Positions 3,305-3,402 of a DNA stretch of 64,000 nt are shown in pieces; the first letter of the stretch is position 1, and the number at the start of each line of letters is the position of its first letter. The position numbers and the translations under genes are program-made. Below the pieces are notes generated by a model. The model was not told where the DNA came from. It did not search any database and saw only the letters and a list, made by a program, of their open reading frames with translations. The stretch lies in IMG/VR virus record IMGVR_UViG_3300035190_000444, positions 1 to 64,000 of that record; one strand, 5' to 3'. Source of the stretch: a virus. Its lineage: Duplodnaviria > Caudoviricetes.

Positions 3305-3329
3305 AAAAGGGCTAATTAGCCCTTTTTTT
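3305..3329. terminator. bidirectional intrinsic terminator
   Basis: AAAAGGGCTAATTAGCCCTTTTTTT between convergent genes. Confidence 0.8.
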
Positions 3330-3402
3330 AACGATTGTAAATATACATAGTGACTTCAAAGCCAAAACGTAAATCAACATATGTTGGTGTTTCCCATTTC
3401 AT
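3328..3402 (-). CDS. pqqA: pyrroloquinoline quinone precursor peptide PqqA
   Basis: [24 protein letters not shown]: W-x-x-P, DLRFG, ExxxY core and NR end; AGGAGG RBS 8 nt upstream; terminator directly after. Confidence 0.92.
   Translation of the reverse strand: [24 protein letters not shown]

Follow-up and report, generated by a model that had tools for sequence, protein, structure and literature searches.

The window analysed here (64,000 nt) is the first part of an 88,585-bp (88.6-kb) fragment of a myovirus, held as an IMG/VR virus record. It contains a 24-codon ORF followed by a stop codon on the minus strand, which encodes a 24-aa PqqA peptide. The gene is located 3' of a gene for a PAAR-motif protein, within a same-strand nrdA-SOD-HNH-nrdB-grx block (Table 1). 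An initial annotation of this DNA had proposed a 24-codon pqqA at this position, preceded by an AGGAGG and downstream of PAAR; these points were confirmed, and the strand, which it did not state, is minus. The HNH endonuclease and the Fe/Mn superoxide dismutase (SOD) were absent from its description of the neighbourhood as an nrd-grx-PAAR run. The SOD matched NCBIfam SOD models, all under their equivalog cutoffs, and the best phage matches of nrdA were in Xanthomonas, Ralstonia and Stenotrophomonas phages (53-60% identity).

Table 1. Features at and around the pqqA locus, in window coordinates.
Feature	Position	Strand	Evidence and remarks
Convergent gene, 290 aa	2418..3290	+	no Pfam, PHROG or NCBIfam match
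Hairpin, 9-bp stem and 4-nt loop	3305..3326	.	RNA fold
pqqA	3328..3402	-	translation; PF08042 42.8 bits; TIGR02107 44.8 bits
Shine-Dalgarno (SD) AGGAGG	3411..3416 (read 3416-3411)	-	sequence; conserved in all pqqA-carrying clade members
PAAR-motif protein, 95 aa	3420..3707	-	PF05488 52.1 bits; phrog_281
179-aa ORF	3707..4246	-	no Pfam, PHROG or NCBIfam match; found in some relatives only
phrog_527 protein, 95 aa, function-unknown family	4259..4546	-	phrog_527 E 1.1e-14; clade-conserved
Glutaredoxin (grx)	4533..4805	-	PF00462 52.6 bits
nrdB, ribonucleotide reductase small subunit	5056..6150	-	PF00268 144.4 bits
HNH endonuclease, between nrd genes	6504..6983	-	PF13392 51.8 bits
Fe/Mn superoxide dismutase	6996..7547	-	PF02777 80.3 bits, PF00081 32.1 bits
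nrdA, ribonucleotide reductase large subunit with ATP-cone	7544..9859	-	PF02867 349.1 bits

The PAAR stop codon is found 3 nt before the AGGAGG, which is separated from the pqqA ATG by an 8-nt spacer, giving 17 nt from the PAAR stop to the ATG; the PAAR gene, directly 5' of pqqA, is probably co-transcribed with it. A terminator had also been noted after the gene, and the hairpin located there is a likely one: its predicted fold has an energy of -13.6 kcal/mol (z -3.72), and none of 200 shuffled sequences was equally stable. A consensus terminator scanner did not list this hairpin, probably because its A/T-extended stem consumes the T-run, which amounts to 7 T on the plus strand and only UUUUCUU, a short U-run, in the pqqA sense. 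The hairpin is likely a bidirectional intrinsic terminator, common to pqqA and the convergent gene on the plus strand.

The profile search proposed in the initial annotation gave clear matches to both the Pfam model (PF08042, E 4.6e-11, curated cutoff 21.1) and the NCBIfam equivalog (TIGR02107, E 7.4e-12, cutoff 20). The scores are about twice both curated cutoffs and far past chance, confirming that the peptide is a bona fide PqqA; no family in PHROGs matched it. Its 24 residues fall within the size typical of PqqA (~20-40 aa). The leader, which in PqqA is the PqqD-binding part, contains Trp3 and Pro6 and shows the W-x-x-P...R-x-G pattern (W3, P6, R12, G14). The E-x-x-x-Y pair is formed by Glu16 and Tyr20 (E16-V-T-M-Y20); this Glu-Tyr pair gives rise to the PQQ skeleton, by cross-link chemistry cited in the available text of PMC7678222 (its refs 50-51).

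The phage gene lacks the canonical context directly 5' of pqqBCDE, both in the record and in a complete relative, G001 (372,016 bp, direct terminal repeats, CheckV 100%), which also carries pqqA. Profile searches across the whole 88,585-bp record found no pqqC, PqqD or radical-SAM genes, and models for PqqB, PqqC, PqqD and PqqE had no match in G001, where the sole radical-SAM-like ORF is QueE-like. The PqqC model detected its target in five of five candidate-host genomes used as a positive control. The initial annotation, which reported no pqqBCDE in the window and proposed that the phage supplies the precursor only, was thus borne out over the full record and the 372-kb relative. Its suggestion to look for pmoC or xoxF elsewhere in the genome gave a negative outcome: the 88.6-kb record has no pmoC or methanol dehydrogenase, and G001 has no AmoC/pmoC, no PQQ_2 and no PQQ-dependent dehydrogenase. 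A lone context is no bar to PqqA membership: of 120 cellular pqqA loci, at least 12 are extra copies that stand alone as well.

Relatives were retrieved with the neighbouring phrog_527 protein as an unbiased probe, and 13 were assessable. Seven carried pqqA and six did not, so the gene is dispensable. In the relatives without it the PAAR stop directly abuts the same hairpin, and the ~95-nt unit (SD and 75-nt ORF) is therefore a clean accessory indel between these two features. In six of the seven carriers pqqA has 96-100% nucleotide identity (no more than 3 substitutions over 75 nt), while in the seventh (L293) 8 of 75 nt differ (about 89% identity). All seven ORFs are intact and keep every residue that is invariant among the viral variants described below. 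The flanks of the same relatives are hypervariable: PAAR ranges from 33 to 100% aa identity, falling to 33-39% in the most divergent relatives, and occurs in forms of ~87, 95-96, 104 or 225 aa, and the convergent gene shows 32-41% aa identity, one identical strain excepted.

This distribution bears on whether pqqA is a neutral passenger, a host fragment that entered by illegitimate recombination beside the terminator and is gained and lost within the clade by drift, with no benefit to the phage. Its presence in just seven of 13 relatives, as a clean indel, would fit such a passenger. The substitutions within the clade, mixed and too few for a formal dN/dS (synonymous/non-synonymous nucleotide changes of 2/1 against L288, 0/2 against L285 and 1/7 against L293), do not speak against it. 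The near-identity of the cassette, set beside neighbours that both fall to about 35% aa identity, argues against it, although a recent lateral spread of the cassette among relatives, in place of purifying selection, could account for that near-identity.

The expression data are likewise compatible with a passenger: among contigs of three RNA libraries none covered 3341-4008, these being contigs only, where a gap proves nothing. Two of the libraries, both of a single study, gave contigs in which 3314 runs into 4260 across 332 different letters. The joined contigs derive from a strain of 93-97% similarity whose segment 3315-4259 is replaced, and the joint would fit a PAAR-only strain without pqqA. 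The genes neighbouring pqqA were covered by RNA-library contigs from this segment-replaced strain.

The search across phage genomes suggested by the initial annotation found the gene in many other viruses. Ten genuine phage records in INPHARED have a PqqA ORF, including Melnitz, Venkman (EXVC282S), MEP301, MEP401/402 and P19250A, and in all ten it is unannotated or lies under a wrong-strand hypothetical CDS. Six of six tested peptides exceeded the TIGR02107 cutoff, and five complete isolate genomes among the carriers had no PqqC or radical SAM. The isolated pqqA phages in INPHARED all infect obligate methylotrophs; one more carrier is an uncultured spring-water virus whose host is not stated. 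That all cultured methylophages carry pqqA was considered and rejected: MEP431-434, HIM624-A and Venkman EXVC038S (NCBI taxonomy) were not among the INPHARED matches, and may be outside that collection.

In IMG/VR, scanned with degenerate DNA patterns, at least 120 contigs have the GFEVTMY core and 24 further contigs have a second, 12-residue core, giving at least 144 in total. None of the 126 and 26 viral loci listed has pqqB-E nearby. All 62 distinct viral peptides match PF08042. W3, P6, R12 and G14-Y20 are invariant in these 62 variants; the invariance of G14-Y20 is built into the search pattern, and W3, P6 and R12 lie outside it, although the extraction regex required W..P and R/K. Carriers belong to unrelated families (Kyanoviridae Melnitz, Zobellviridae MEP402, unclassified sipho-like isolates, and contigs of 69-372 kb with a GC of 0.30-0.47). 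The recurrence of a solitary pqqA in unrelated phage families, always intact, always without pqqB-E and with a consensus SD, together with the retention of W3, P6 and R12 under that regex, argues further against a neutral passenger, which we regard as unlikely.

The closest cellular PqqA peptides share 22-23 of 24 residues and are overwhelmingly from Methylococcales, with pqqBCDE adjacent, which agrees with the host group predicted in the initial annotation. Matches at 22 residues come from more than 60 loci of Methylobacter, Methylomonas, Crenothrix and similar genera, and matches at 23 residues from Cycloclasticus and Piscirickettsiaceae MAGs and from two Methylococcales-order genomes. Among 120 cellular loci with a 12-residue core, 99 have pqqB-E genes beside pqqA and 52 have all four. 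The phage gene differs from 120 cellular genes by a median of 9 synonymous and 2 non-synonymous codons of 25. When window positions 1-20000 were compared by BLAST with 401 Methylococcales-order genomes, 350 matched, and all but two among the matches listed were to pqqA, at 79-91% nucleotide identity. The phage gene was apparently copied from methane-oxidising bacteria. Capture of the 5' UTR along with the gene was rejected, as ungapped identity upstream of the ATG was 4-12 of 25 nt with the SD excluded.

The same BLAST gave no spacer-like match for the first 20 kb in the 401 genomes. The phage DNA recurs in metagenomes from lakes: in eleven DNA runs outside those flagged as possible sources, each labelled lake water, 74-97% of the sampled words were present. 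The origin of the gene and this habitat point to a Methylococcales methanotroph as the most likely host. Marine Cycloclasticus, a hydrocarbon degrader, is among the single best peptide matches and does not fit a lake habitat.

The genes around pqqA raise the question of whether PQQ serves other ends, either as a redox or antioxidant aid acting with the phage SOD and glutaredoxin, or for glucose or alcohol quinoprotein dehydrogenases in a host that is not a methanotroph. That pqqA shares a same-strand block with Fe/Mn SOD, glutaredoxin and nrdAB is in line with this, as are the lack of pmoC and methanol dehydrogenase in the record and the complete relative and the 23/24 peptides of Cycloclasticus. 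On the other hand, the closest matches, in peptide and in DNA alike, are overwhelmingly to Methylococcales labelled as methanotrophs, and every isolated INPHARED carrier grows on an obligate methylotroph, which makes such uses improbable. In methanotrophic Methylococcales PQQ is used mainly by methanol dehydrogenase.

The peptide could instead act as a decoy or regulator that occupies host PqqD/PqqE or a sensor and alters PQQ synthesis or physiology without feeding the pathway. This is very unlikely, given that the phage peptide matches host peptides at E16, at Y20 and throughout the GFEVTMY core, residues that a decoy would not need, and that amino acid changes within the clade are confined to positions 7, 9, 11 and 22, all of them variable in cellular peptides too. 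That pqqA belongs to a bacterial fragment mis-binned as viral can be practically dismissed: one INPHARED 'phage' pqqA record is indeed chromosomal, but genes for baseplate, tail-fibre and virion proteins lie in the window, as expected from the phage origin assumed in the initial annotation, the 372-kb relative is a complete genome with terminal repeats, and PAAR and phage nrd genes flank pqqA in all relatives. The chromosomal record, which contains ppk and pqqBCDE, is the inspected one of two named 'Acinetobacter phage MD-2021a' (the second is a 13-kb contig), and this name was rejected as phage evidence. On its sequence and setting pqqA can be classed as a putative auxiliary metabolic gene (AMG), a host-derived gene embedded among viral genes of a bona fide viral genome.

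The reading we favour, with reasonable though not high confidence, is that the locus is a functional stand-alone pqqA, a ~95-nt accessory 'moron' cassette of a ~372-kb freshwater myovirus with a probable Methylococcales host, which feeds the PQQ pathway of that host. The phage would make the 24-aa precursor only, leaving the rest of the pathway to the host, whose PqqD/PqqE would cross-link Glu16 to Tyr20 of the phage peptide and whose protease, PqqB and PqqC would finish PQQ. Each cofactor made uses up one peptide, and transcription of host genes usually falls in lytic infection; a phage copy would therefore maintain or increase the only substrate that the pathway spends stoichiometrically. 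This would sustain the PQQ-dependent methanol dehydrogenases MxaF/XoxF, and with them the flow of energy and carbon, during virion production, so that phage pqqA may support methanol oxidation in infection, as the initial annotation had also suggested. We infer with this reading that the gene is expressed in infection, that its peptide is accepted by host PqqD/E, that PQQ, methanol oxidation or burst size is affected, and which bacteria are the host.

Work on cellular pqqA is relevant to the dosage argument. As described in the available text of the respective studies, one methylotroph carries pqqA in five copies, of which three stand alone, and their expression follows the rate of PQQ synthesis (PMC9851590), and in Acetobacter pasteurianus overexpression of pqqAB increased PQQ by 29%, compared with an 8-fold rise with the whole cluster (PMC7936290). 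The precursor is therefore not the sole limit, at least in A. pasteurianus.

More tentatively, and with somewhat less than even confidence, pqqA may be perhaps the smallest and among the most pervasive of methylotrophy AMGs: a ~95-nt cassette (SD and 23-24 codons) that supplies a sacrificial substrate only, acquired independently by many unrelated phages of OM43/LD28 Methylophilaceae and of Methylococcales, and sitting below ORF-calling cutoffs. It would then be the first widespread phage RiPP precursor without a maturase that drives a host cofactor pathway. If phage pqqA boosts PQQ, viruses would tune the cofactor supply of methanol dehydrogenase, a step common to methane and methanol oxidation, both in lakes (methanotrophs) and in the ocean (OM43 clade). 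Whatever the mechanism, AMG surveys based on gene callers with length cutoffs miss pqqA. The natural relatives with and without pqqA, a clean ~95-nt indel apart, provide a ready comparison, and the cultured methylophages provide an experimental system, with Melnitz or Venkman on OM43 strain H5P1 as phage-host pairs in culture. Published media for OM43 contain 1 nM PQQ, an addition that might hide an effect of the phage gene.

The initial annotation was not aware of pqqA as a described auxiliary gene class, and on this point it does not stand. Viral PqqA was reported in 2020 in the Lake Baikal Methylophilaceae virus population VP_266 (Coutinho et al. 2020, Microbiome 8:163; PMC7678222), and a 2026 paper lists viral pqqA/D/E (PMC13188868), according to the available text of both. 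The present phage is thus a further case of a known class that annotation usually misses. It shares with VP_266, as described there, a phage-borne PqqA, a freshwater lake and a proposed boost of PQQ for the host methanol dehydrogenase. However, VP_266 was assigned to Methylophilaceae and also encodes methanol dehydrogenase, whereas the ~372-kb myovirus has neither a dehydrogenase nor pmoC; its peptide is of the Methylococcales type, as seen in a 15-residue stretch, and its gene is an accessory ~95-nt indel cassette.

Melnitz, Venkman EXVC282S, MEP301, MEP401/402 and P19250A likewise have a solitary PqqA of 23-24 aa with its own SD, but of another peptide subtype and in phages of another host order; the available text of the Melnitz and MEP301 papers does not mention pqqA. 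Cellular stand-alone pqqA copies likewise lie apart from pqqBCDE and have a strong SD and a 3' hairpin, implying that precursor dosage is tuned apart from the enzymes; those copies are chromosomal, whereas this pqqA is on a lytic-type phage genome. Cyanophages carry psbA and methanotroph phages carry pmoC, and the logic is the same, in that the phage carries one turning-over or flux-limiting component and the host the rest. Phages with pmoC are cited in a 2024 survey of viral methane-metabolism genes (PMC10904782) and in a 20-year lake virome preprint (bioRxiv 2024.02.06.579183), in the available main text of which pqqA is not mentioned. The difference lies in the product: enzyme-complex subunits in the case of psbA and pmoC, but a sacrificial substrate in that of pqqA, which is a RiPP precursor carried with no maturase.

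The 24-residue product of the phage ORF matched both PqqA models, Pfam PF08042 (42.8 bits, E 4.6e-11; gathering cutoff 21.1) and the NCBIfam equivalog TIGR02107 (44.8 bits, E 7.4e-12; cutoff 20), in agreement with the initial annotation of a phage-encoded pqqA. Sequence and fold checks also reproduced the location, ribosome-binding site and hairpin in every particular, the minus strand having been omitted there. The hairpin, which is shared by pqqA and the convergent gene, had a predicted RNA fold of -13.6 kcal/mol (z -3.72; 0/200 shuffles equally stable) and was absent from the listing of a consensus terminator scanner.

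Features of the pqqA region and related loci (window positions unless another record is named; nrdA to pqqA in transcription order, assigned by family profile searches)
Feature	Position	Strand	Remark
nrdA	7544-9859	(-)	
Fe/Mn superoxide dismutase	6996-7547	(-)	between nrdA and HNH endonuclease
HNH endonuclease	6504-6983	(-)	
nrdB	5056-6150	(-)	
glutaredoxin	4533-4805	(-)	
phrog_527 protein	4259-4546	(-)	
179-aa ORF	3707-4246	(-)	without family
PAAR	3420-3707	(-)	
AGGAGG	3416-3411		8 nt upstream of pqqA ATG, 3 nt past PAAR stop codon
pqqA	3328-3402	(-)	24 codons
hairpin	3305-3326		9-bp stem, 4-nt loop, directly 3' of pqqA stop
convergent gene	2418-3290	(+)	290 aa
stretch within orf182	1601-1792		phrog_7930, 'lipoprotein precursor'
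second stretch	18807-18940		
tRNA-Met(CAT)	69560-69633		full record, beyond window
tRNA-Arg(CCT)	71792-71868		full record, beyond window
QueE-like ORF	L275 1372-2214	(-)	in G001
pqqA site, Melnitz-1	L002 5001-5072 = MZ577095.1 74882-74953	(+)	
pqqA site, MW202481.1	L008 2119-2187		

The window covers the opening 64 kb of an IMG/VR record 88,585 bp long, which has a GC content of 34-39% and a CheckV completeness of 25%; baseplate, tail-fibre and virion proteins farther along indicate a myovirus-type phage. The superoxide dismutase, which shares its block with glutaredoxin and pqqA, scored far under the NCBIfam equivalog cutoffs and is thus a divergent member of its family.

The initial annotation found no pqqBCDE in the window, and this held for the whole record, where no PqqC-family (TENA/THI-4), PqqD, radical-SAM, AmoC/pmoC or PQQ_2 dehydrogenase gene was detected, and for the pqqA flanks, which had no pqqB-E. 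An IMG/VR scan with a back-translated 12-residue core of the peptide yielded 26 contigs, seven of them relatives of the window phage with the same pqqA (peptide identical in five, Y22H in two). One of the seven, G001, is a 100% complete genome of 372,016 bp with direct terminal repeats, a size that fits the completeness estimate of the present record. G001 had no match to AmoC, PQQ_2, PqqE (TIGR02109), PqqC (TIGR02111), PqqB (TIGR02108) or PqqD, so that the search for pmoC or xoxF proposed in the initial annotation was negative in both genomes. The PqqC model gave 0 matches in built-in control genomes and scored above cutoff in 5/5 candidate-host genomes used as positive control. Because the maturase models were without match in the record and G001, this lineage carries the precursor gene alone. 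A lone sub-threshold radical-SAM match in G001 was rejected as PqqE, being QueE-like (7-deazaguanine synthesis), and suggests 7-deazaguanine DNA modification in this clade; the adjoining ORF has a weak HNH/IscB-like match.

When cellular genomes (one per species) were scanned for the same core, at least 120 loci were found, overwhelmingly Methylococcales by record title, including among those listed Methylobacter, Methylomonas, Methylomicrobium, Methylovulum, Crenothrix and Methyloprofundus; the others listed were Cycloclasticus and a few Paraburkholderia, Ferrovum and betaproteobacterial MAGs. Among the loci listed, 23/24 residues were shared with three Cycloclasticus genomes and one Piscirickettsiaceae MAG, 22/24 with more than 60 loci, nearly all methanotroph-labelled, and at most 19/24 with every Paraburkholderia, Ferrovum and betaproteobacterial peptide. 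Two further genomes of the order containing Methylobacter shared 23/24 amino acids and 67-68/75 nucleotides. The genes pqqB-E lay beside pqqA in 99 of the 120 cellular loci listed (all four in 52), and the 23/24-residue Cycloclasticus loci had the full set.

When window 1-20000 was compared by BLAST with 401 genomes of this order, 350 gave matches, and all but two of the matches listed fell on 3318-3424, which is pqqA, at 79-91% nucleotide identity, making it the sole host-like DNA there. Besides pqqA, the only stretches of the first 20 kb resembling the order were 1601-1792 and 18807-18940, each weakly similar (71-74%) to a single genome. The phage DNA recurred in metagenomes: among DNA runs without a possible-source flag, eleven contained 74-97% of the sampled words; all are labelled lake water and may represent one sampling campaign. 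The Methylococcales-like pqqA and the lake-water recurrence point to freshwater Methylococcales as the most likely hosts, a judgement from sequence affinity and habitat; marine Cycloclasticus are less likely. The predicted host group, Methylococcales or Methylophilaceae, fits.

Since the seven relatives had been recovered through pqqA itself, an unbiased set was obtained through the conserved neighbour phrog_527 (best 80 of 483 relatives kept). At phrog_527 identity of at least 78% there were 14 loci, 13 with at least 1.8 kb downstream, and pqqA was present in 7/13 and missing from 6/13; two of the seven carriers had further alleles. At 63-69% identity it was found in 0/12 loci, two of which, with less than 500 nt downstream, cannot be judged, and among the 54 most distant of the best 80 a Methylophilaceae-type pqqA occurred in one. 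Where pqqA is lacking, the same hairpin follows the PAAR stop at once in four of six relatives (L294, L286, L287 and L292), so that the Shine-Dalgarno sequence and ORF (~95 nt) form a clean indel between that stop and a pre-existing terminator; L290 and L291 are arranged differently downstream and have no convergent gene.

Carrier synteny is nrdB, grx, phrog_527, an optional 179-aa ORF, PAAR, pqqA, the convergent gene and orf182. PAAR shares 33-100% amino acid identity across carriers, in forms of 95-96, 104 and 225 aa (87 aa in two relatives without pqqA), and the convergent gene, without family match, 32-41% in all relatives except one identical strain. Genes beyond these two are 86-100% identical among relatives, a contrast that resembles a hot spot of diversification or recombination and might relate to host recognition. 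Between them, pqqA, its Shine-Dalgarno sequence and the hairpin are conserved, with no more than 3 of 75 nt changed in six carriers and 8 in the seventh (L293), and with amino acid changes within the clade at positions 7, 9, 11 and 22 only. The median difference from the 120 cellular genes listed was 9 synonymous and 2 non-synonymous codons; within the clade, such counts were too small and inconsistent for dN/dS. Such conservation, with a hypervariable gene on either side, speaks for maintenance, but the same pattern would arise if the cassette had spread laterally in recent times. We regard a neutral passenger as improbable.

Parts of window 1-10000 were found in three RNA libraries, with contigs over neighbouring genes at 93-99% likeness and, at the level of contigs, none over 3341-4008. 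Contigs of two libraries from one study ran from 2419 to 3314, in the hairpin loop, continued with 332 letters matching neither side and resumed at 4260, indicating a related strain, 93-97% similar, in which pqqA, PAAR and the 179-aa ORF (3315-4259) are replaced. By its length, the unseen replacement would be compatible with PAAR alone and no pqqA. DNA run X11 showed zero differences over 2818-5563.

The tblastn search across phage genomes proposed in the initial annotation gave 12 matches among 50,697 INPHARED records, ten of them genuine phages: four Melnitz isolates (Kyanoviridae), MEP401 and MEP402 (Zobellviridae), P19250A, Venkman EXVC282S, MEP301 and a spring-water podovirus. The two 'Acinetobacter phage MD-2021a' contigs were rejected; in the one inspected (L003, CAKLQF020000010.1, 144 kb), the stretch examined encodes a membrane dipeptidase besides ppk and pqqABCDE and looks like bacterial chromosome. 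At the position of pqqA the ten records are either unannotated or show a hypothetical CDS; in both cases inspected (L002 and L008) this CDS lies on the opposite strand and is probably a mis-call hiding pqqA. Six phage peptides scored 34.0-40.9 bits with TIGR02107, all above cutoff, and five complete isolate genomes had no PqqC or radical SAM. MEP431-434, HIM624-A and Venkman EXVC038S, Methylophilales phages in the NCBI taxonomy, were outside the 12 matches, so it cannot be claimed that all such phages carry pqqA.

In IMG/VR, the core GFEVTMY recovered at least 120 contigs, mostly of one type beginning MWT, and the 12-residue core added 24. Among the matches listed, pqqB-E occurred in the fetched flanks of 0 of 126 + 26 phage and viral loci, and 62/62 distinct viral peptides matched PF08042. 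Carrier contigs include ones of 372, 215, 144, 94.5 and 69.7 kb, with locus GC of 0.30-0.47, a spread indicating several unrelated lineages. At least four further contig groups have a solitary pqqA, with subtypes ending YIAST, YIAAR and YIATK besides another: L252 and L263 (G003, 144 kb, GC 0.30); L258 (G002, 215 kb, GC 0.47); L266 and L270 (G005); and L118 with seven other contigs (GC 0.39-0.43). Several radical-SAM genes were seen in G002 and G004.

Precursor supply to the host PQQ pathway is the best-supported reading and, in our judgement, a fairly probable one; the interpretation of the initial annotation, host prediction included, was largely reasonable. Each PQQ derives from a single PqqA molecule (refs 50-51, as cited in PMC7678222), which makes the peptide a stoichiometric substrate. 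Cells, too, have extra stand-alone copies of pqqA (no fewer than 12 of the 120 loci listed), and PMC9851590 describes a methylotroph with five copies, three stand-alone, the most expressed of which track the PQQ synthesis rate. In Acetobacter pasteurianus, pqqAB overexpression raised PQQ by 29% and the whole cluster 8-fold (PMC7936290). Added precursor thus helps, without being the sole limit. A phage shutting down host transcription might deplete first the short, heavily used pqqA transcript, by analogy with psbA in cyanophages.

The superoxide dismutase and glutaredoxin adjacent to pqqA suggest that PQQ might serve a purpose besides methanol oxidation, a reading we consider unlikely. That the peptide acts as a decoy or regulator is very doubtful, and mis-binned bacterial DNA can practically be dismissed.

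Viral pqqA has precedents: PMC7678222 (Coutinho et al. 2020) reports PqqA plus methanol dehydrogenase in the Lake Baikal Methylophilaceae virus VP_266 and proposes that viral PqqA boosts methanol oxidation, and a 2026 reservoir-sediment study (PMC13188868) counts viral pqqA, pqqD and pqqE among phosphate-solubilisation AMGs. The initial belief in an undescribed gene class was accordingly mistaken. In passages of the Melnitz paper (PMC9004378) PQQ appears only as a medium supplement, and those of the MEP301 paper (PMC8024684) make no mention of it; 'PQQ' and 'pyrroloquinoline' are absent from the main texts of a 2024 viral methane-metabolism AMG survey (PMC10904782) and a 20-year lake virome preprint (10.1101/2024.02.06.579183). 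Full-text searches, supplements excluded, found no print report of a Methylococcales-type pqqA in a jumbo phage, of the cassette structure, or of hidden pqqA in cultured methylophages. Phage pqqA, ordinary once recognised and of a gene class already described, is of note for being pervasive and minimal in structure, for escaping annotation systematically, and for lending itself to experiments with methylophages and hosts in culture.
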